Origin: Parcubacteria group bacterium M6-OD1-3
Lineage (GTDB): Bacteria; Patescibacteriota; Minisyncoccia; Moranbacterales; UBA9337
Length of the DNA: 64,000 nt
Assembly (NCBI GenBank): GCA_003056165.1
Contig: LSNR01000002.1
Span: 2,726-66,725 of the forward strand
Direction of reading: 5' to 3'
Of this stretch, positions 2,956 to 63,469 are shown piece after piece (positions within the stretch are counted from its first letter, which is position 1; each line of letters begins with the position of its first letter). Made by a program: the position numbers and the translations under genes. The notes beneath the pieces are model-generated. The model did not search any database. It was given only the letters and a program-made list of their open reading frames with translations, and had not been told where the DNA came from.

Positions 2956-3639
2956 TTATGTTGTTTGTAATTTTCCATCTTTCAACCACACTGATCTATC
3001 TACATATTTCTTATCATCTGGCTCGTGCGTGACCATAATAATTGTCTGATTATATTTGTCTGCTAATTCACGCATCACCTCCAAAACCGCTTCTGCCGCC
3101 TCAGAATCCAAATTCGCTGTCGGCTCATCAGCGAAAAGAATGTCAGGTTTATTCACAATTGCACGCGCGATTGAAACTCTTTGTTGTTCGCCACCGGACA
3201 ATTCCGAAGGTAAATTATTCTCACGACCATTTAATCCAACTCTCTCAAGGATTTCTTTAATATCTTTATTATACTGTCTTTTTGATTTTCCTAATGCCAT
3301 CATAGGCAAAGCAATATTCTCATATAGAGTTAATTCTGGAATTAAGGCATAATCTTGAAAGACATACCCCAACACTTCTAACCGAAACTTTGCCCGATCT
3401 TGTTCCGATAATTTCGAAACATCAATACCATTTATTTCTATATATCCAGATGTTGGTCGATCCAGTAAAGCAATCTGATGCAAAAAGGTAGATTTTCCAG
3501 AACCACTTCGCCCCATCAATGCCACGAATTCACCCTTTTTTAATTCTATATCAATCCCTTTCAATGCATAAACTGGACTAGCTGTATTCGCTTTATATGT
3601 CTTAACCAAATCTTTAGTTTTTAAAATATATTCTTTCAT
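2956..3639 (-). CDS. ABC transporter ATP-binding protein (MacB/LolD/FtsE-like)
   Basis: Walker A 'GRSGSGKST', signature 'LSGGEQQRVSIARA', Walker B 'ILFADEPT'. Confidence 0.9.
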   Translation of the reverse strand: MKEYILKTKDLVKTYKANTASPVYALKGIDIELKKGEFVALMGRSGSGKSTFLHQIALLDRPTSGYIEINGIDVSKLSEQDRAKFRLEVLGYVFQDYALIPELTLYENIALPMMALGKSKRQYNKDIKEILERVGLNGRENNLPSELSGGEQQRVSIARAIVNKPDILFADEPTANLDSEAAEAVLEVMRELADKYNQTIIMVTHEPDDKKYVDRSVWLKDGKLQTT

Positions 3640-3646
3640 ATAATAA

Positions 3647-4867
3647 TTAGCGCATTAAATCAAGAATTTTTTTACGGACTTCTTTTATTGCCGGCAAAAA
3701 TGATCCTATTAATCCAGCGATGATAAACAAGATTATGCTCATTTTCAAAGCCGACTTTTTTATTGATGGAACCATATCGCCCATCGGAAAATCAATTGGA
3801 TGTACTTTGAAAAAATTTATTACTCCAAATCTCATTAACAAATATCCTAATGCCATTCCTAATACAGTATAAAACATTCCCCGAATTACATAAGAATACA
3901 TTATAGCACCTTCTGGAATACCGATAGCTTTCAAAATTCCAATTTGTTTACGACGATTAACAATATCAACAAAAATAATAATAAATATTACCAATCCAGC
4001 TACAAATGATCCTATTACACGCAAAATTGAACCGATCATATCAAAGGATTTATTTATTGTTCTACCAAACTCCAATTTATTATTCCAGTCAGAGATATCA
4101 TATGCTCCAAGATTTAATTTTTCAAAATCAACAACAGCTACAGGCGATAAACTTCTATCAGTTAATCTTACAATAATTTCACTAGATTCATTTGTTGTTC
4201 CTAAAATTGACTTTAAATCATTTTGTGTCACTATCAACTTTGAATCGGTATCAAAATTTTTTGTTTTATATACACCGACAATTTCATAATCCCTACTTAT
4301 ATCATTATCATATTTTACAGTAATCGTATCACCAGGTCGAACACCTTCCAAATCATCTGGAAACACAGAGCTACCATAACCACCAGCAACATCCGCGCCA
4401 ATAATTGCTTTCCCATAGTCACCCTTTCTCAAATAACGACCACTGACTATTTTAGAAGAAACATCAATTGCTTTAGACTCTTTTTCTGGGTTAATACCAA
4501 TAACGCCCCCCGAAAAACGAACTACATCTCTGCCATCATTATTTTTATCATTTATTAGCGTAGCACCAGTTCGCAAATGCGAAGTAACCGCCTTTATATA
4601 ATAAAAATCTTTTATTTCATTGATGATGTCATTAGTATTTTTAATATATTTATCTCCATCTTGTGGCTCAAAAATAACCTCACCGTATTGATAATTTATT
4701 TTACCATTATCCATTGTTACAGAAATTCCAGTAAAAATTGAATCGATAAAAAGTAAATTTAAAAATACGACAAGCATGATTAATATTGTCAAAATGAATG
4801 AACCTTTATCTCCTCGTAAAATAGTTTTAATTGCTAAAAATATTGAAAGTTTTGCATTTTTAAACAT
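3647..4867 (-). CDS. ABC transporter permease, FtsX/MacB-type
   Basis: N- and C-terminal TM segments around a large extracytoplasmic domain; operon position next to the ATPase. Confidence 0.75.
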   Translation of the reverse strand: MFKNAKLSIFLAIKTILRGDKGSFILTILIMLVVFLNLLFIDSIFTGISVTMDNGKINYQYGEVIFEPQDGDKYIKNTNDIINEIKDFYYIKAVTSHLRTGATLINDKNNDGRDVVRFSGGVIGINPEKESKAIDVSSKIVSGRYLRKGDYGKAIIGADVAGGYGSSVFPDDLEGVRPGDTITVKYDNDISRDYEIVGVYKTKNFDTDSKLIVTQNDLKSILGTTNESSEIIVRLTDRSLSPVAVVDFEKLNLGAYDISDWNNKLEFGRTINKSFDMIGSILRVIGSFVAGLVIFIIIFVDIVNRRKQIGILKAIGIPEGAIMYSYVIRGMFYTVLGMALGYLLMRFGVINFFKVHPIDFPMGDMVPSIKKSALKMSIILFIIAGLIGSFLPAIKEVRKKILDLMR

Positions 4868-13954: not shown

Positions 13955-13993
13955 CAAAACTTATATTTTACTGTTAGTAATCTACTTCTTTTT

Positions 13994-14143
13994 TTATTTT
14001 TTCCAATCTTCGATGATAATTTTGTTGCCACTTTTATGCACAGTTAATTTTTGTTTACCTCTCCATTTTAAATCTCGTACAATTTCAATGACATTTTTTA
14101 ATCTCAAATCTGTACAATCTCTTTTTGCTTGTTCTTCATTCAT
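13994..14143 (-). CDS. small AbrB/SpoVT (MazE-like swapped-hairpin) family protein, 49 aa (MNEEQAKRDCTDLRLKNVIEIVRDLKWRGKQKLTVHKSGNKIIIEDWKK)
   Basis: Own translation; ATG 8 nt downstream of the Fic stop (coupled); paralogous to the 58-aa ORF at 61211-61387. Confidence 0.45.
   Translation of the reverse strand: MNEEQAKRDCTDLRLKNVIEIVRDLKWRGKQKLTVHKSGNKIIIEDWKK
14001..14096. repeat. about 90-bp direct repeat, copy A (copy B at 15331-15423), flanking the Fic cassette
   Basis: Near-identical stretch 'ttcgatgataattttgtt...tatgcacagttaatttttgtttacctctccattttaaatctcgtacaatttcaa' read in both places. Confidence 0.8.
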
Positions 14144-14150
14144 ATTTACT

Positions 14151-15200
14151 TTAATTAAAATAATTTTTCACTGCATCTTCAAATTGTTCAATAAAAATTT
14201 GTTTAAAATACGAAATATTATTTATTTCATAAAAAAGCAAAGATGCTTTTTTATATTCTTCAACTTCCACAATCCTATAAGAAAGCGGCACAGAATTATG
14301 AGCCAGCAATATCGCATTTGAAAAGGTTCTCGCAGTCCTCTTATTTCCATCCTCAAAAGCTTGAATATAAGAAATCAAAATCAATCCCAAGAAAGCTTTC
14401 TCAAAAAATAATGCTTTTTTATTTATTAGCACAATCATTTTCTCCAAAGCTTCTTTAATCTGAAATGAATTATCTAGAGGTTTGTATTTCGTACCAGTAA
14501 TACCCACTCCACCATTTCTAATATTTTTTGTAATATCTAGTTTTTTAGTTAAAACAAAATGAAAATACTCTATATCAGAATAATTCAATTTTTTAAACTT
14601 CTCTTTATTTTGAATCGCCTCATTGAAAGCATCTTTATGATTCAAAATCATTTGAGTTTCTTTTTGAGTTTTTCCTTTTCCTGCGACATTTTCTTTGAGC
14701 AATGCCTCAGTGCCTAAAAGTGAATAAGTATTACCCTCAATAGCTGAGGACTTCCACGAAAACTCAATCATTATTCTTTCAAGTTCTTTATTAATTAAAG
14801 TTTGACTGTCATACTTTGAAAAATTTTTTATAAATTCAGTTTGTAATTTTTTAATCCTTTCTTGCTCCTCTGTTGTGAAAATATCATTTTCCAGAATTTC
14901 AAAAATTTCAAAATTAAAATTTTCTTTTATATCCCTTCTCATGTATGGTGTTTTGAAATATTCTTCAGCATCAATTGGTAAAAATATTTTATTTGCATCT
15001 GTAATACTATATTTTACTCCTCTTCCTGATCCAGTCTTTGAAATAAATCCTTGTTCTTGTAAATAATTTAAATCTCTTTGTAATGTTTTTCTTTCTATTT
15101 TAGCACCCAAAAAAGACAGTATATCTGACACTGCTACTTGTGTATCTCTATTTTCCAAAAAAGAAATAATCTTCTTTTGTCGTTCTTGTCTTTTATTCAT
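14151..15200 (-). CDS. Fic/Doc-family protein with N-terminal winged-HTH; Doc-type motif with catalytic His replaced by Gln (QAFEDGNKRTAR)
   Basis: ORF track plus own check of the DNA (caa gct ttt gag gat gga aat aag agg act gcg aga). Confidence 0.75.
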   Translation of the reverse strand: MNKRQERQKKIISFLENRDTQVAVSDILSFLGAKIERKTLQRDLNYLQEQGFISKTGSGRGVKYSITDANKIFLPIDAEEYFKTPYMRRDIKENFNFEIFEILENDIFTTEEQERIKKLQTEFIKNFSKYDSQTLINKELERIMIEFSWKSSAIEGNTYSLLGTEALLKENVAGKGKTQKETQMILNHKDAFNEAIQNKEKFKKLNYSDIEYFHFVLTKKLDITKNIRNGGVGITGTKYKPLDNSFQIKEALEKMIVLINKKALFFEKAFLGLILISYIQAFEDGNKRTARTFSNAILLAHNSVPLSYRIVEVEEYKKASLLFYEINNISYFKQIFIEQFEDAVKNYFN

Positions 15201-15216
15201 ATATACATTATATCAC

Positions 15217-15330
15217 TAATTGCGACATTTTTCAATACTAATTGCGACATTTTTTAAAGAATTTTCTTAAAAAGCCTTATTTTATAACAAATTAATTGCG
15301 ACATTTTCAACTGCTAATCACAACATTTTA
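15217..15330. promoter_or_regulatory. operator-like direct repeats TAATTGCGACATTTT x3 (15217, 15239, 15293) plus a degenerate 4th (15314), in two pairs 22 bp apart, immediately upstream of the Fic start
   Basis: Read directly. Confidence 0.45.
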
Positions 15331-15423
15331 TTTTTCCTAATCTTCGATGATAATTTTGTTGTTGCTTTTATGCACAGTTAATTTTTGTTTACCTCTCCAT
15401 TTTAAATCTCGTACAATTTCAAC
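15331..15423. repeat. about 90-bp direct repeat, copy B
   Basis: See copy A. Confidence 0.8.
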
Positions 15424-15478
15424 TGGCAAAGTGATGGCATAACTGCCATTACTTCGTTTTGATAACTTGCGGATGTTT
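15335..15478 (-). pseudogene. AbrB/SpoVT-like gene fragment without a start codon (…NIRKLSKRSNGSYAITLPVEIVRDLKWRGKQKLTVHKSNNKIIIED*), abutting the GIY-YIG remnant in another frame
   Basis: Own translation of minus strand; paralogue of 61211-61387. Confidence 0.35.
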
Positions 15479-15733
15479 TTACCCTGTTAAATAAGATTTG
15501 AGTCTCTTTTTTAGAAACATCTTTCCGTGATAAGTTTTTAGATATTTTTCTCTATGTGTAGCATCCTGTTGATTTAGACATGCTTCATAATAAATTAATT
15601 TTAAAGGTCTTCTGTTTTTAGTAGATTTAACTTACCCTTTATTGTGTTTCTCAAATCTTAATTTCAAATTTGCAGTATATCCTGTATAAAAATTGTTGTC
15701 CTTTAGTGAATATAAAACGTAAGTATAAAACAT
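15479..15733 (-). pseudogene. small GIY-YIG nuclease gene with an in-frame TAA (MFYTYVLYSLKDNNFYTGYTANLKLRFEKHNKG*VKSTKNRRPLKLIYYEACLNQQDATHREKYLKTYHGKMFLKKRLKSYLTG)
   Basis: Own translation; stop at 15632-15634 in the same frame as both halves. Confidence 0.55.
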
Positions 15734-15847
15734 TATTTTTTTGATTTGAAATTATTTAACAGGGCGAGCCCTTCCAATTTTCTTCTTGCCATATTTTTAT
15801 TTTTTATTATTTTATTAATTAATTTTTCACCCACCCTTAATTAAAAT

Positions 15848-15881
15848 TAATGACCACATTAATGACCACATTAATGTGGTC
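15848..15881. promoter_or_regulatory. tandem/palindromic element taATGACCACATTaATGACCACATTAATGTGGTC
   Basis: Read directly; sits in a non-coding stretch with an unusual GC-rich patch at 15960-16030. Confidence 0.3.
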
Positions 15882-40099: not shown

Positions 40100-40151
40100 T
40101 AATTATAAATTATGAATTATTAAATATTTAATAATTCATAATTTATAATTA
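40100..40151. repeat. perfect 52-nt A/T palindrome in the atpB-atpE spacer
   Basis: taattataaattatgaattattaaata|tttaataattcataatttataatta. Confidence 0.8.
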
Positions 40152-49045: not shown

Positions 49046-49334
49046 TCCAAAATATTTTAAATTTTAAGTAATTTCAAAAATTCTACCATTAATTTCTATT
49101 ATTAACATATCTTTTTTATTATTCTCAGTCAAGTATCTGTACACGGTGTGTTTCATCTTATTTAGTATTATCATTGTCATGTTAATTACATTTAAAAATG
49201 TCATACCATTTATCAAATAGAAATGTCATGCTTTGAAAAATTTATTGATTTTTCAAATTTTAAAAAGTGGTCAAATTATGCACGTGCATAATTTGACCAC
49301 GGTCGAAAATTTATTTAATTTCTTTTGAAAAGTA

Positions 49335-57744: not shown

Positions 57745-60477
57745 TTACAATTCTCCCCAATTTTTCCCAATTTTAATATCAGCAATTAAAGGAACTGCTA
57801 GTTTATAAACTCCCTCCATTATTTCTTTAGTTTTTTTAGCAACTTCCTCAGACTTATCTTCGCTCACTTCCAAAATAATTTCATCGTGAATTTGCAAAAT
57901 CATATCAACATATTTGTCTTTTCTGAAAAAATCATACACCGCAATCATCGCCAATTTCATAATATCGGCAGCTAATCCTTGAATCGGCATATTGATTGCC
58001 ATTCGCTCAGCCATCGCTTGAACTTGGAAATTCGGCGAATTTATTTCTGGCAAATATCGTCGTCGTCCCGTTTCTGTTTCTACAAAACCGTTTTTCTTCG
58101 CAGACTCTTTTGTTTCCCCTATGAACTTTGCCACATCAGAAAAATTTTTCATATACTGGGCGATAAATTCACCAGCATCTTCCCGTGAAATATCCGCTGA
58201 CTGTGAAAAACCGAAACTACTCATTCCGTAAATAACCCCAAAATTCAATGCTTTAGCTTGTCGTCGCATTTTTTTTGTGACAGCGGAATGCGGTACTTTA
58301 TTTACTTCCGCCGCGGTCTTAGTATGAATATCCTCTCCCGCCCAAAAAGCTTCTATCATTTTTTTATCTTTGCTCATATGTGCCATCACTCGCAAATCAA
58401 TTTGCGAGTAATCCGCTGAAACCAAAACTTTGCCATCATTCGCTTCAAAGGCTGTCCTAATTATCTTTCCTAAGTCCGTACGAATAGGAATATTTTGCAA
58501 ATTTGGATTTTCCGAAGAAAGCCTTCCTGTTGCCGTCACTGCCTGATTAAATGTGGTATGAATTCTTCCGTCGCTTTGTACTAATTTTGGAAAAGCATCC
58601 AAATAAGTTGTTTTTAATTTAAATAATTCGCGATATTTTTCAATTTTCTCGATAATTTCGTGTTTATTTTTTAATTTGTACAATTCTGGAGCAGCTGTTG
58701 AAAAGCCAGTTTTATTTTTTTTAATTCCCTGTGTGGAAATTTTTAATTTTTCAAAAAGAATTTTTCTAAGCTGTTGCGTAGAATTAACATTAAAATTTTC
58801 TCCAGCCAATTTTTGAATTTTTTCTTCCAAATTTTCAACCTGCTTATTTATTTTCTCAGCAATACCTTTAAAAATAATTTTGTTTAATTTTATTCCTTTA
58901 AGTTCCATTTCCGCCAAGACTGGGATTAGTGGGATTTCAATTTTAGTAAAAACATTTTTTAAATTTCTTTCTGTAGAAATATTTTTCTGCTCCTTACTTA
59001 TTTTATCTATTTTGTCCTCCAAAATATTTTTTAATTTAAAAAGATAATCAGCTTTTCGACATAATTTCTCAGCAACATCTTCTGTTGATGCTATTGAAAT
59101 TAAACTTATCTGTCCCATTTTTTCTTCCGAAAATTCTTCTCCCAACTCTTCGGCAATTGTCTCACTTAAATCTATTTTTAACCCGGAGTTCAAAAGATAA
59201 TCCATTAACATCACATCCTGACACAGAATCTTTTTTTTATTATCAATATAATCAATTAATTTTAAATTAATATTTCTATTTTTAAAATGTTTGTAAATAT
59301 TTTTTAATTTCCAGCCAATTTTTATAATATCTTTACTCTCTAAAATCTGTTTTAATTTTTTCAAATCTTTCTTAGCTGAAAATTCCAAGAAATATGTTTG
59401 TCCTATTTTCCAAGAAAACGCCATTTGCACATTTCCATTTTCCAAAAAATCACCGACGATAACAACCTCTTTTTGCTTTGATAATTTTTTGATAAATTTA
59501 TCAAAATCTGAATTTGCAATAATATCACACTTAAAGTTTTCTATACCAACTGGTTTTTTTTCCTCAGAATTACCAGCATCTTTCTCTCCATTGTTTTTTA
59601 AAAATCGTTTAATCAAGCTATGGAAACCAAGTTCGCGGAAAAGAATAATCAATTTATTTCGATCGAAATCATCGGTTTTGCATTTTTGCAAATTAAATTT
59701 AATCGGAACATTTGTTTTAATCGTTCCTAAATCTTTAGAAAGAAACGCTTGTGCTTTATCAGTCTCCAATTTATCTTTCACTGCTCCCTTAATTTCATCT
59801 ATATTTTTATAAACGCCTTCTAATGTTTTGTATTTTGTCAATAAATTTATAGCACCTTTTTCACCAATCCCTTTTACTCCTGGAATATTATCCGAAGTGT
59901 CTCCACACAAACCTTTATAATCTTTTAGTTGTTCTGGTTTCAAGGTATACCTTTTCCAAACCGCTTTTTTATCATACAAAACAGCTTTACTAATACCGCG
60001 ACTCATTGTATAAACTTTAACATTTGGTCGCACCAATTGTAGCGTATCTAAATCTCCAGTAACAATAATTGTTTCTAAATTGTGGTCATCGGAATTTTCC
60101 GCCATTTCAAAAGCAATAGTTCCAATAAGATCATCTGCTTCAAATCCTTCTTTTTCATAAATTGGGATTCCGAACGCTCGCACGATCTCTTTAACTCTTT
60201 CTATTTGCGCATAAAGCTCATCCGGACCCTTTACTCTGGTCGCCTTATATTCTTTAAATTTTTTGTGTCGAAAAGTCGGAGCTTTCAAGTCAAATGTAGC
60301 CACAATATATTCCGGCTGGAATTTATCAATTACAGTTAAAAGCGTTGATGCAAATCCATAAACTGCATTAACCAACTCACCTTTCTTTGTCGTAAATGGT
60401 GGTAAAGCATGAAAAGACCGATGGATAATCGCATTTCCATCAATAAGTACCAATTTTTTCTTTTGCTTTTTTGACAT
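57745..60477 (-). CDS. polA: DNA polymerase I
   Basis: 5'-3' exonuclease N-terminus, motif A 'DYSQIDLRV', motif B 'RRQAKALNFGVIYG', motif C 'HDE'. Confidence 0.9.
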   Translation of the reverse strand: MSKKQKKKLVLIDGNAIIHRSFHALPPFTTKKGELVNAVYGFASTLLTVIDKFQPEYIVATFDLKAPTFRHKKFKEYKATRVKGPDELYAQIERVKEIVRAFGIPIYEKEGFEADDLIGTIAFEMAENSDDHNLETIIVTGDLDTLQLVRPNVKVYTMSRGISKAVLYDKKAVWKRYTLKPEQLKDYKGLCGDTSDNIPGVKGIGEKGAINLLTKYKTLEGVYKNIDEIKGAVKDKLETDKAQAFLSKDLGTIKTNVPIKFNLQKCKTDDFDRNKLIILFRELGFHSLIKRFLKNNGEKDAGNSEEKKPVGIENFKCDIIANSDFDKFIKKLSKQKEVVIVGDFLENGNVQMAFSWKIGQTYFLEFSAKKDLKKLKQILESKDIIKIGWKLKNIYKHFKNRNINLKLIDYIDNKKKILCQDVMLMDYLLNSGLKIDLSETIAEELGEEFSEEKMGQISLISIASTEDVAEKLCRKADYLFKLKNILEDKIDKISKEQKNISTERNLKNVFTKIEIPLIPVLAEMELKGIKLNKIIFKGIAEKINKQVENLEEKIQKLAGENFNVNSTQQLRKILFEKLKISTQGIKKNKTGFSTAAPELYKLKNKHEIIEKIEKYRELFKLKTTYLDAFPKLVQSDGRIHTTFNQAVTATGRLSSENPNLQNIPIRTDLGKIIRTAFEANDGKVLVSADYSQIDLRVMAHMSKDKKMIEAFWAGEDIHTKTAAEVNKVPHSAVTKKMRRQAKALNFGVIYGMSSFGFSQSADISREDAGEFIAQYMKNFSDVAKFIGETKESAKKNGFVETETGRRRYLPEINSPNFQVQAMAERMAINMPIQGLAADIMKLAMIAVYDFFRKDKYVDMILQIHDEIILEVSEDKSEEVAKKTKEIMEGVYKLAVPLIADIKIGKNWGEL

Positions 60478-60539
60478 AATTAATTCAAATTAGTAAAACT
60501 TTCAATTTAAAATATATTATTATCTCTTACACTTCAAAT

Positions 60540-60764
60540 TTATTGTACTCCTGCGTCATTCAGTGTTTCTTTCAAATGATCGTTTTCCTTCTCCACAGCA
60601 GTATTTATTTTAACTTTAGACCGGTCATAGGTTTTTACCATACTAGTTGGGCTAAATGGATTTATCGTTTCAGTTTCGGGTTTTTTTGTCGCGTGATTTC
60701 CGCAACCACTTATAAAAACAGGCACCACTCCAATCAAAAACAAAATTATAATTTTCTTTCTCAT
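60540..60764 (-). CDS. small lipoprotein
   Basis: Signal peptide plus lipobox 'FISGC'. Confidence 0.45.
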   Translation of the reverse strand: MRKKIIILFLIGVVPVFISGCGNHATKKPETETINPFSPTSMVKTYDRSKVKINTAVEKENDHLKETLNDAGVQ

Positions 60765-60897
60765 AAACTAAAAAATACTAAACATATTACAAACGCTTAG
60801 CATTATTATACACTATTATTGATAAATTATAAAAAGTTTATTTTGTAAAACCTCAGCATCTAAACTGTAAAATTATCTATCAACTACAGTTATTTTT

Positions 60898-60935
60898 TAT
60901 TTTAAGCCTATTTTTTTGTCGGAGCACTGGGATTC
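60898..60935. repeat. 37-bp duplicate of the tRNA-Pro 3' end plus its 3' flank (identical to 61029-61064)
   Basis: ttttaagcctatttttttgtcggagcactgggattc read at both sites. Confidence 0.8.
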
Positions 60936-61046
60936 CTCTCCGAGCCTGAATGCTCACAAGTTCGCATCCTTCGAATCCCATCATCTAAATTGAAGATTAT
61001 TTATAAATCACAACCATTTCTCACTTTTTTAAGCCTATTTTTTTGT

Positions 61047-61119
61047 CGGAGCACTGGGATTCGAACCCAAACTACACGGTCCCAAACCGTGCGTGCTAGC
61101 CGTTGACACCATGCTCCGC
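61047..61119 (-). tRNA. tRNA-Pro (anticodon TGG), C1:G72, A73
   Basis: Own fold: acceptor CGGAGCA/TGCTCCG, anticodon stem-loop cacgg-TTTGGGA-ccgtg, T-arm tGGGTTCGAATCCCa. Confidence 0.85.
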
Positions 61120-61210
61120 ATTTCACTTTTGATATATTTTAAAACTATATGTTATCTTACACTCAAATAACAACTTAGTCAATGATACTAGTTTTTCCTA
61201 TTTTATAAGA

Positions 61211-61387
61211 TTATTTTTTCCAATCCTCAATAATTATTTTACTTCCTCTTTTTTTAACAACCACCTTTTGTTTCTCTCGCCATTTTAATTTTCTAACAAT
61301 CTCAATAGGAATTGTAACAGCAATTGATTGCTTACCAACCTTAGTCAATTTTCTTATGTTTCTATCTTCTAATTTTCTTGTAGACAT
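61211..61387 (-). CDS. AbrB/SpoVT (MazE-like) family small DNA-binding protein, 58 aa (MSTRKLEDRNIRKLTKVGKQSIAVTIPIEIVRKLKWREKQKVVVKKRGSKIIIEDWKK)
   Basis: Own translation; swapped-hairpin signature 'GKQSIAVTIPIEIVRKL'. Confidence 0.55.
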   Translation of the reverse strand: MSTRKLEDRNIRKLTKVGKQSIAVTIPIEIVRKLKWREKQKVVVKKRGSKIIIEDWKK

Positions 61388-61450
61388 TTGTTTTGTTCTA
61401 TTATTTTTTAAATTATTCTATTAAATTCTATTCAAACAAATCCAATTTCT

Positions 61451-61486
61451 ATGTAAGTAATGTATTACGTAATACATTACTTACAT
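61451..61486. promoter_or_regulatory. perfect 36-bp palindrome ATGTAAGTAATGTATTAC|GTAATACATTACTTACAT, 64 bp upstream of the AbrB-like gene
   Basis: Read directly. Confidence 0.5.
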
Positions 61487-61567
61487 CTATAGCACTACTC
61501 TCACCTAAAAACTTAATATCAGTTACTAACTAATTGCTAAACATAAAAAATATGCTCTCTTTTAAAA

Positions 61568-63469
61568 TTAAGCGCTATTTTTTTCATCATTAGTTTTAAG
61601 ATGATTTTTCTCATCTTTTATTTTGCTTTCATCAGTTATCTTTTCAGTTTCAAAGCCCATAATTTCATCAAATTCTTCTTTTTCAATAATTTCTTTTTTA
61701 AGTAAGGTCTTGGCGATTTTATCCAAAACATCTTTTTTATCTCTAATAATTTTTTGAGACGCCTCCTTAGCAGAATTAACAAAACTAGAAACTGCTTTAT
61801 CAATGCTTATCGCAGTTTGTTCAGAATAATCTTTTTCTTCACTAATTTCTTTTCCAAGAAAAACTAATTCTTCTTTTTTACCAAATGTTCTTGGACCTAG
61901 ACTACTCATCCCATATCGCATAACCATATCTCGTGCCATTCTTGTCACTCTTTCCAAGTCATTAGATGCTCCAGTCGTCACATCACCAAATGTTTCCGAT
62001 TCACTAACATATCCCCCCAATAAAACTGCCAGCTCATCTATAAAATGTGCTCGGGAATGTAATCGCTTATCCTCAGTCGGAACAGACATAGTATATCCAC
62101 CAGCACTACCTCTGGAAATAATGGAAATTTTTTGCACCGGATCAGCCTCTTTAGACAACGCAGCTACAAGAGCATGTCCAGCTTCATGATAAGCTATTAT
62201 TTTTTTTTCTTCCTTACTGATAGCCCGACTTTTTCTCTCTGCTCCCATCATTACTTTTTCAATGGACTCTCTTAATTCAAGCATTCCAATTTTTTTCTTA
62301 TTTTGTCGTGCCGATGAAATAGCCGCTTCATTAATAAGGTTCGCCAAGTCCGCCCCAGAAAATCCCGGCGTTCTTTGCGCAATATTTACTAAATTAACAT
62401 CCTCTTTAAACTTTTTATTTTTACTGTGAATTTTCAAAATCGCTTTTCTTTCATTAATATCCGGCAAGTCCATAGTCACTCGTCGGTCAAATCTACCTGG
62501 ACGCAAAAGTGCTGGGTCCAAAACATCAGGCCTATTTGTTGCTGCCATCACGATAATATTAACATTCGTTTCAAAGCCATCCATCTCAACCAATATTTGA
62601 TTAAGCGTCTGTTCTCGCTCATCATTGCCTCCGCCCAATCCAGCTCCACGATGCCTTCCAACAGCATCAATCTCATCAATAAAAACAATTGCTGGAGCAT
62701 TTTTCTTCGCTTGTTTGAAAAGGTCTCGAACTCTTGAAGCTCCAACTCCCACAAACATTTCTACAAATTCTGACCCACTAATATTAAAAAATGGAACACC
62801 AGCTTCGCCAGCGACAGCCTTGGCAATCAAAGTTTTTCCAGTTCCAGGAGGTCCTAATAGTAAAATTCCTTTTGGAATTTTCGCCCCCATATCCAAAAAT
62901 TTCTTGGGATTTTTTAGAAAATCAACTACTTCCATCAATTCTTCTTTTGCCTCCTTGGCTCCGGCAACATTTTTAAATGTCGTTCGTTTCTTTTTATCTT
63001 TCGGATCCGTCATTCTGGCCTTACTCATTCCAAAAGAAAGTGCTTGGGAATTGCCTCGCTGAGCTTGCTTCATCATAAACCAAAGAAACCCACCAATCAA
63101 AAGGATAGGCAATAAAAATGGCAAAATTATTCCCGCCCAAACGACCAAGCCAGAAGCACCTTTGATATCAATATTAACTTCTTGTAACTTCTTTTTATCA
63201 ACTCCGTAGTTACTTAAAGTTTCCACTAGAGAACTTTCCGCTTCCTTGGAAGATTTTTCTTTTACTCCATCAGCTAATTCAACTTCAAGTTTCTCTCCTC
63301 TAACAACAATTTTTTTAACATTGCCTTTATCAATTTGTGACACAATAGTAGAAAGTGCAACTTCTTTCACTTTTTCAGTAGAAGAATTATATATGGTCAT
63401 AAGCCCCGAAATTAATAAAAAAACTATTAGTGTCGGCGCAACAATGTTTTTAAATATTTTATCCATCAT
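61568..63469 (-). CDS. ftsH: ATP-dependent zinc metalloprotease FtsH
   Basis: Walker A 'GPPGTGKT', SRH region, 'HEAGHA' zinc motif. Confidence 0.95.

Follow-up and report, generated by a model that had tools for sequence, protein, structure and literature searches.

The 64,000-nucleotide stretch of Parcubacteria group bacterium M6-OD1-3 analysed here (contig LSNR01000002.1; the whole stretch is referred to as the window) carries on its minus strand a gene for a 58-amino-acid (58-aa) protein and, upstream of this gene, a perfect palindrome of 36 bp. Judged from sequence comparison, the protein is very probably a stand-alone transcription factor of the AbrB/MazE/SpoVT fold and the palindrome its own operator, with no role in a toxin-antitoxin system. 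This operator assignment is proposed because the element travels with the gene, outlasts synonymous sites, and has boxes that change with the DNA-contact loop of the adjacent protein. The features concerned are the following:

61211 to 61387, minus strand: gene for the intact stand-alone 58-aa AbrB/MazE-fold protein, 6.9 kDa, isoelectric point 10.9 (open reading frame (ORF), PF04014, AlphaFold2, Foldseek).
61451 to 61486, no strand: perfect 36-bp palindrome, proposed operator (inverted-repeat search, shuffles, homologous elements upstream of related genes).
61454 to 61459, no strand: box 1, TAAGTA, on the minus strand the box farthest from the promoter (one of three boxes spaced 12 bp apart).
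61466 to 61471, no strand: box 2, TACGTA, the middle box, through which the dyad axis runs (box reading across loci).
61478 to 61483, no strand: box 3, TACTTA, the reverse complement of box 1 (box reading across loci).

The palindrome, composed of ATGTAAGTAATGTATTAC followed directly by GTAATACATTACTTACAT, has arms of 18 nt each which are 100% complementary and separated by zero spacer, and a distance of 63 nt separates its end from the ATG (61387) of the 58-aa ORF, which lies downstream of it on the minus strand, in agreement with the initial annotation, which had placed a perfect 36-bp palindrome upstream of an intact stand-alone copy. No palindrome with three or fewer mismatches was obtained in any of 100 dinucleotide shuffles, and the AT-rich window (32% G+C) contains one other perfect 18+18 palindrome, at 40108-40143. 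The order of genes on the minus strand is tilS (partial), ftsH (61568-63469), the 58-aa ORF, tRNA-Pro (61045-61118), a small lipoprotein-like ORF and polA. The 58-aa gene stands alone between ftsH and tRNA-Pro, the palindrome being located 81 nt from the ftsH stop (61568) on its downstream side, and the protein together with its surroundings also occurs on contig LSNT01000006.1 of NCBI assembly GCA_003056105.1.

Across loci, the element consists of three boxes of 6-8 bp placed every 12 bp, separated by A/T-rich, often TTAA-like spacers and dyad-symmetric about the central box; in the window it reads TAAGTA-N6-TACGTA-N6-TACTTA. It can equivalently be read in another register, as a pair of 12-bp inverted repeats, GTAAT-GT-ATTAC and GTAAT-AC-ATTAC, that adjoin each other and are flanked on either side by one more half-site, and the data are compatible with both the box-centred and the GTAAT-N2-ATTAC-centred register. 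A cruciform or hairpin was considered as the cause of the symmetric spacers and was found superfluous, since the two spacers are equivalent for a complex whose two-fold axis passes through the central box.

The 58-aa protein, which contains 19 lysine and arginine versus 6 aspartate and glutamate residues, matches Pfam family PF04014 (MazE_antitoxin/AbrB) across residues 17-54 with 27.9 bits, the curated threshold being 24.7. Its AlphaFold2 model, based on 37 homologues (mean predicted local distance difference test score 82.7), displays a beta-beta-alpha-beta-beta topology (E15-17, E21-23, H28-34, E42-47, E50-55). The best Foldseek neighbours of this model are MazE (1ub4_C, template modelling (TM) score 0.71), the AbrB N-domain, SpoVT and AbrB-type VapB (TM 0.57-0.71, probability up to 1.0), and the matches include structures of the AbrB/Abh/SpoVT group (1yfb, 2k1n, 2w1t) and Sso7c4 (2l66), with E-values that are weak (at least 0.03) owing to the tiny domain. 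By profile and topology, the protein is a member of the AbrB/MazE/SpoVT swapped-hairpin superfamily (PF04014). A sequence search of the Protein Data Bank gave no more than a weak match to AbrB (E about 0.4), the profile aligning to AbrB residues 12-49, and no NCBIfam model for the family was found. Within the family alignment R12 is invariant and R32 nearly invariant, and in our own alignment both appear to occupy the positions of the DNA-binding arginines of AbrB. The fold fills the whole protein (to residue ~55), leaving no C-terminal tail, and the dyad symmetry of the putative operator is consistent with a homodimer.

A total of 388 relatives of the 58-aa protein were detectable, nearly all of 56-60 aa and derived from metagenome-assembled genomes of Parcubacteria/Patescibacteria, with 66-100% identity to the 58-aa protein among the 120 best listed. 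An exhaustive profile search yielded between 190 (E<=1e-10) and 500 (E<=1e-3) clusters at 50% identity, nearly all of 56-63 aa, while no relative was found among the viral contigs of IMG/VR. The gene-plus-operator unit appears to behave as a portable cassette among Patescibacteria genomes. As further observations, locus L025 contains the whole cassette in tandem duplicate (3001-3177 and 4558-4734) with an operator for each copy, and genome CAYNHB01 encodes four paralogues (L017, L030, L074 and L086), each with a distinct element.

The initial annotation had named absence of the palindrome from orthologous loci as the outcome that would speak against its proposal; instead, the element is present upstream of related genes in unrelated contexts. 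In a syntenic locus (L005), where the gene for a protein of 88% identity likewise follows ftsH, a 36-bp near-palindrome, ATGCAAGTAATACATTACATAATATATTACTTACAT, occupies the same place. In a non-syntenic and GC-richer locus (L006, protein 84% identical), the corresponding element, ATGTAAGTAATAGATTACGTAATACATTACGTACAT, is located 17-18 nt from the ATG, and the gene is preceded by one of the ribose-phosphate pyrophosphokinase type (Pfam Pribosyltran), which has a GC-rich terminator hairpin of its own. A comparison of the window with L006 gives an identity of 92% for the operator, 45% for third codon positions and 28% and 22% for the flanking 36 and 18 nt, respectively. The 36-bp element is accordingly under purifying selection, because 92% of it is kept while the third codon positions are saturated and the operator flanks random.

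The generality of this arrangement was assessed by a one-genome-per-species scan in which 365 family loci were found and 80 retrieved, and by comparison of 81 non-redundant upstream regions with control windows from the same loci. Within the 150 nt upstream, a palindrome of at least 14/18 occurs in 62% of family loci and 3% of controls, a period-12 self-match of at least 16/24 in 60% and 2%, and either of these in 75% and 4%, respectively (Mann-Whitney p = 4e-35 for palindromes and 4e-31 for periodicity). When periods from 6 to 18 were compared, enrichment was seen for period 12 alone, in 36% of loci versus 0.2% of controls. A reverse scan of metagenome contigs for TACGTA-N6-TACGTA-N6-TACGTA placed 6 of 120 matches beside a family gene and 33 more at contig ends; the matches are mostly (TACG)n-type microsatellites and other repeats, and the scan therefore says little on the exclusivity of the element.

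The sequence of the boxes was then related to the loop class of the adjacent protein, defined by the loop between strands 1 and 2 (the DNA-contact loop). TACGTA-like boxes accompany the 10-residue loop (KVGKQSIAV type; 25/59 versus 0/16, p = 7e-4), and TTAAYTC/GAGTTAA boxes the 11-residue loop (TGGGKSISV type; 13/16 versus 2/59, p = 4e-10). Among the smaller classes, the NGSY loop goes with GTGGTC/TGGGTC boxes (L088 and a second, decayed gene in the window, designated copy C) and the GNGS loop with TTATATAA. The window itself thus contains two paralogue lineages with two operator types, TACGTA-type at 61451 and GTGGTC-type at 15846.

Concerning these additional copies, the three AbrB/MazE-like loci listed in the initial annotation are all real, yet only that at 61211-61387 is intact and the other two are decayed; a tblastn search across the window revealed no further family members. 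The features of the decayed loci are as follows:

13994 to 14143, minus strand: copy B, 49-aa ORF of which only the C-terminal ~33 residues are family-like (no Pfam match; 97-nt repeat shared with copy C).
15328 to 15480, minus strand: body of copy C, KNIRKLSKRSNGSYAITLPVEIVRDLKWRGKQKLTVHKSNNKIIIED followed by a stop, EK and another stop; a pseudogene with TGG changed to TAG (tblastn E=4e-17).
15482 to 15764, minus strand: inserted GIY-YIG mini-element of 283 bp with perfect 13-bp terminal inverted repeats (PF01541, 56.8 bits).
15772 to 15792, minus strand: first 7 codons of copy C, MARRKLE (ATG GCA AGA AGA AAA TTG GAA), severed by the insertion (tblastn residues 1-7, 100% identical).
15846 to 15881, minus strand: operator-like element of copy C, GACCAC ATTAAT GTGGTC ATTAAT GTGGTC ATTAAT, with a 12-bp period (repeat searches; like the L088 upstream region).

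Copy B, which has neither strand 1 nor the DNA-contact loop, is probably without function. Copy C is a formerly complete gene-plus-operator cassette: its periodic element is followed by 53 nt and the MARRKLE start, and its sequence, once repaired, scores 26.6 bits on PF04014. The L088 upstream region has the same architecture and box type, and the L088 protein has an NGSY loop too; no second copy of the copy-C operator was found in the window. The mini-element, with the terminal repeats CCCTGTTAAATAA and TTATTTAACAGGG, is inserted after codon 7 of copy C; its GIY-YIG ORF has an in-frame TAA, and no target-site duplication was seen.

A direct repeat of 97 nt with 95% identity (13992-14088 and 15326-15422), covering the 3' portion of the AbrB-like gene, has between its arms a helix-turn-helix (HTH)-Fic gene (14151-15200, minus strand, 349 aa). 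The Fic motif of this gene is degenerate (QAFEDGNKRTAR, catalytic His to Gln), and PADLOC matches its product moderately well to SoFic, a defence protein (E=2e-14). A family member in another genome has a strong SoFic match (E=3e-108) immediately downstream of it, and AbrB-like and Fic genes may thus occur together repeatedly. At 15213-15305, a short distance upstream of the HTH-Fic gene, three direct repeats of (A/T)TAATTGCGACATT, with start-to-start distances of 22 and 54 nt, may be sites for the HTH domain of the HTH-Fic protein itself.

As a mechanism, dimers of the 58-aa protein would bind the three boxes spaced 12 bp apart, two or three of them side by side on one 36-bp operator, and would thereby regulate the gene from which the protein itself is expressed. 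A single dimer is less likely than two or three because the three boxes span 36 bp, compared with a single MazE site of ~15 bp. The 'dimeric-repressor operator' of the initial annotation is consequently retained as an operator, and its autoregulatory nature is strongly supported by the comparison (the element follows the gene, is conserved, and its boxes co-vary with the loop), while the notion of one dimer finds no support, the element being too long for a single AbrB/MazE dimer. The data show the anatomy, the fold, the conservation of the operator and its co-variation with the protein; physical binding, stoichiometry, repression rather than activation, and further targets are what we infer. 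Across the family the distance from element to ATG has a median of 14 nt and is within 30 nt in 82% of cases, so that in most relatives the element would abut or overlap the core promoter. An extended -10 (TGnTAnAAT) is found directly after the element, 6-9 nt from the ATG, in at least 12 loci (e.g. TGTGATATAAT in L014 and TATGATATAAT in L043); there the element would occupy the -35/spacer position, ahead of the transcription start, and a leaderless mRNA is probable. In the start regions examined (L009-L088), 2% of family genes and 11% of neighbouring ORFs have a Shine-Dalgarno-like motif, and a -10-like hexamer 4-10 nt from the start codon is common in both groups; this hints that leaderless mRNAs may be frequent in these genomes.

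Several points weigh against an autoregulatory operator. The distance of 63 nt in the window falls in the 16% tail of the family distribution, and a consensus scan detected no sigma-70-type promoter between the palindrome and the 58-aa gene. A -10 hexamer at 4-10 nt from the ATG is not enriched (17% of the family versus 23% of neighbouring genes), and the pattern is therefore illustrative only, for the subset with a clear extended -10. A quarter of the 81 loci have no element by the palindrome and periodicity thresholds. The sign of control, most likely repression, is assumed by analogy. In the 64 kb, no other GTAAT-N2-ATTAC or triple-box sites beyond chance were found, and a transcription factor with itself as only target would be odd. 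Furthermore, gene and upstream region are co-inherited, and part of the co-variation between box and loop could reflect shared ancestry; despite shared descent, however, non-coding DNA that was unconstrained would be expected to be randomised at these divergences.

Three other explanations were weighed against the operator of a stand-alone regulator. It is unlikely that the gene is an orphan or decayed type II antitoxin (of the MazE, VapB or doc-partner type) with the palindrome as toxin-antitoxin operator and the toxin lost, a relative of the 'orphan antitoxin-like' regulator which the initial annotation had offered. Such a history would agree with the Pfam family name MazE_antitoxin and the annotation of relatives as 'antitoxin component' in source records, with the weak match of one subclass member to TIGR02609 'doc_partner' (E=0.006, far under the cut-off), and with the position of copies B and C on either side of a Fic-family gene, composite mazE-doc modules being known (PMC1626090). 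However, neither MazF/PemK nor PIN nor Doc is among the recurrent families of 53 downstream co-oriented ORFs or of the 34 closest (top 25 families listed per scan), the window neighbours of the 58-aa gene are ftsH and tRNA-Pro and include no toxin gene, and the protein, with its Pfam match at 17-54 of 58 residues, stops at the last strand without a tail that could bind and neutralise a toxin. In addition, the family is kept at 60-88% identity without a partner and would therefore be under selection of its own.

Very unlikely, too, is a site for another factor (a regulator such as LexA, a recombinase att site or a mobile-element end) that hitch-hikes with the gene. The variable, island-like contexts beside RadC, DNA methyltransferase, restriction-modification and MazG-like genes, the adjacency of the window locus to a tRNA-Pro with duplicated 3' end, and the presence of a lexA gene near the family gene in L006 are all compatible with a foreign site, but this would leave unexplained why the box sequence shifts when the AbrB-like protein encoded next to it has another loop class. 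Moreover, there is one element per cassette, so that the cassette is not flanked, and neither a conserved recombinase nearby nor an IMG/VR match was found. Finally, that the palindrome acts as RNA, either as ftsH terminator or as a stem-loop in the 5' untranslated region unrelated to protein binding, is likewise very unlikely. The transcript would fold into a stem of 16 bp with a 4-nt loop (intergenic RNA z = -3.0 versus shuffles) at a position downstream of ftsH, yet only 4 of the 18 pairs are G-C, the stem is followed by no U-tract (3' flank AGAAAUUGG), a terminator scan made no call, and an Rfam scan of 60400-61700 returned tRNA-Pro only. Across loci it is the AbrB-like gene, and not ftsH, that the element accompanies, and in L006 it follows a different gene that has a terminator hairpin of its own; many loci have a clear -10 downstream of the element, which would hence be outside the transcript; and the 12-bp periodicity and the direct-repeat variants (L038, L078 and copy C) are unlike what hairpin selection would predict.

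Returning to the 58-aa protein as a stand-alone regulator, about 35 of the 80 retrieved loci, or roughly 40%, have a co-oriented ORF within 60 nt downstream (ORF starts being approximate), and the family regulator could also govern such a downstream cargo gene. The 53 downstream co-oriented genes are heterogeneous, including RadC (3-4), MazG-like (2), one SoFic-like Fic, housekeeping genes (enolase, ComEC, ABC transporters) and about 6-8 components of DNA methyltransferase/restriction-modification systems. Operator-like sites were also observed before genes outside the family. At L014:109-138 a second such site with an extended -10 of its own, TGTGATATAAT, precedes the gene for a 136-aa non-family protein that has no Pfam match. 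In metagenome contigs, TTACGTAA triplets are located upstream of a LytB/ispH-type gene (L183:6836-6865, Pfam-confirmed) and, with translations read by eye, before an RNase J-like gene (L146:14-43) and a ComEC-like gene (L117:8407-8436). These four sites are a lead towards a wider regulon. A broader and speculative proposal, which we consider possible though doubtful, is that minimal 58-aa transcription factors are spread Patescibacteria-wide, with a loop-to-box recognition code and mutually orthogonal paralogues per genome. They would serve as portable self-limiting switches before varied cargo (restriction-modification/methyltransferase, RadC, MazG-like, SoFic-like Fic), as an AbrB-fold analogue of restriction-modification controller proteins, some of them also controlling housekeeping genes through extra triple-box sites.

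Other repeats in the window were recorded as separate observations. The second perfect 36-bp palindrome (40108-40143, AATTATGAATTATTAAATATTTAATAATTCATAATT) is composed of A and T only and lies in a 74-nt gap between two membrane-protein ORFs which, by eye from their translations, look like ATP synthase a and c subunit genes. A 17/18 palindrome at 49266-49301 (AGTGGTCAAATTATGCAC followed by GTGCATAATTTGACCACG) is located 34 nt past the stop of a 574-aa gene, by eye apparently a PEP-utilising enzyme; TTTTAAAATTT comes after it on the minus strand, which makes it terminator-like, and its outer arms GTGGTC/GACCAC are hexamers of the copy-C operator boxes, possibly by coincidence. An exact 36-nt direct repeat (60900-60935 and 61027-61062, 127 bp apart), comprising the last 18 nt of tRNA-Pro and 18 nt downstream, looks like an att-type integration scar with only about 90 bp between the copies.

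Gene regulation in Patescibacteria, whose reduced genomes encode few regulators, is almost unexplored, and a literature search found no paper that combines AbrB with Patescibacteria or the candidate phyla radiation. Autoregulators of the AbrB/MazE type that act through a palindromic operator are a textbook class of mechanism, while this family is so far uncharacterised; the surprise for a specialist is modest, although the operator is built in an unusually clean and conserved way and there may be a recognition code that can be read from the sequence. Being compact (190-500 clusters, at least 365 loci in species-representative genomes), with a cis-element that is readable from sequence and a specificity that co-varies with a short loop, the family offers a tractable system for DNA recognition by the swapped-hairpin fold and could supply very small orthogonal repressor/operator pairs. 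In genome annotation these genes should not be named 'antitoxins'.

Among known systems, AbrB is a stand-alone, autoregulated regulator and not an antitoxin, and represents the closest stand-alone analogue. The N-domain of Bacillus subtilis AbrB, as well as Abh and SpoVT, shares with the 58-aa protein a swapped-hairpin domain of ~50 residues. AbrB, a protein of about 94 aa, acts as a tetramer, has a multimerisation domain at its C-terminus and recognises loosely defined sites genome-wide (PMC3025583), whereas the 58-aa family is a bare domain with a sharply defined conserved operator, sequence similarity being weak (E about 0.4). MraZ also has an AbrB-like fold and, in Mycoplasma genitalium, binds four GTG[G/T] boxes that are separated by 6-nt spacers and lie just ahead of the operon of MraZ itself (PMC12957436), resembling the 58-aa family in the short series of equally spaced boxes before the own gene or operon. 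MraZ is nevertheless larger, has contact residues including Arg86, forms octamer rings and heads the dcw cluster with direct-repeat boxes of 10-bp period (PMC12957436); the 58-aa protein is not MraZ, given its single domain, 12-bp period, dyad symmetry and neighbours ftsH and tRNA-Pro, with no dcw link. Sso7c4 of Sulfolobus is a basic, stand-alone protein with the AbrB fold that forms dimers and is about 55-60 aa long (PMC3159460), regarded as a DNA-bending chromatin-type protein (PMC5222340). It is similar to the 58-aa family in size, fold and basicity, while the latter has a specific conserved putative cognate site.

The controller (C) proteins of restriction-modification systems are small Xre-type helix-turn-helix autoregulators with a symmetric multi-site operator of ~35 bp upstream of their own gene and before cargo genes. 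Their working is similar to that proposed here; the fold differs (AbrB-like in the 58-aa family), no restriction-modification genes are located beside the window copy, and only a minority of family members precede methyltransferase/restriction-modification genes. E. coli MazE likewise belongs to PF04014, is the best structural match, and is autoregulatory with a multi-site operator upstream of its own gene. The mazEF operator extends over 47 bp and comprises three adjacent MazE-dimer sites, one of them a perfect palindrome, a single site being ~15 bp (PMC4333400); the window element differs in the strict 12-bp spacing of its sites and in the dyad symmetry of the whole. In MazE, residues 1-50 constitute the DNA-binding domain and are followed by a disordered C-terminus that binds MazF (PMC4333400), and the toxin is co-transcribed, whereas the 58-aa protein has neither such a tail nor a conserved toxin neighbour. 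The closest working analogue of the 58-aa protein and its palindrome is therefore E. coli MazE on the mazEF operator, minus the toxin half.

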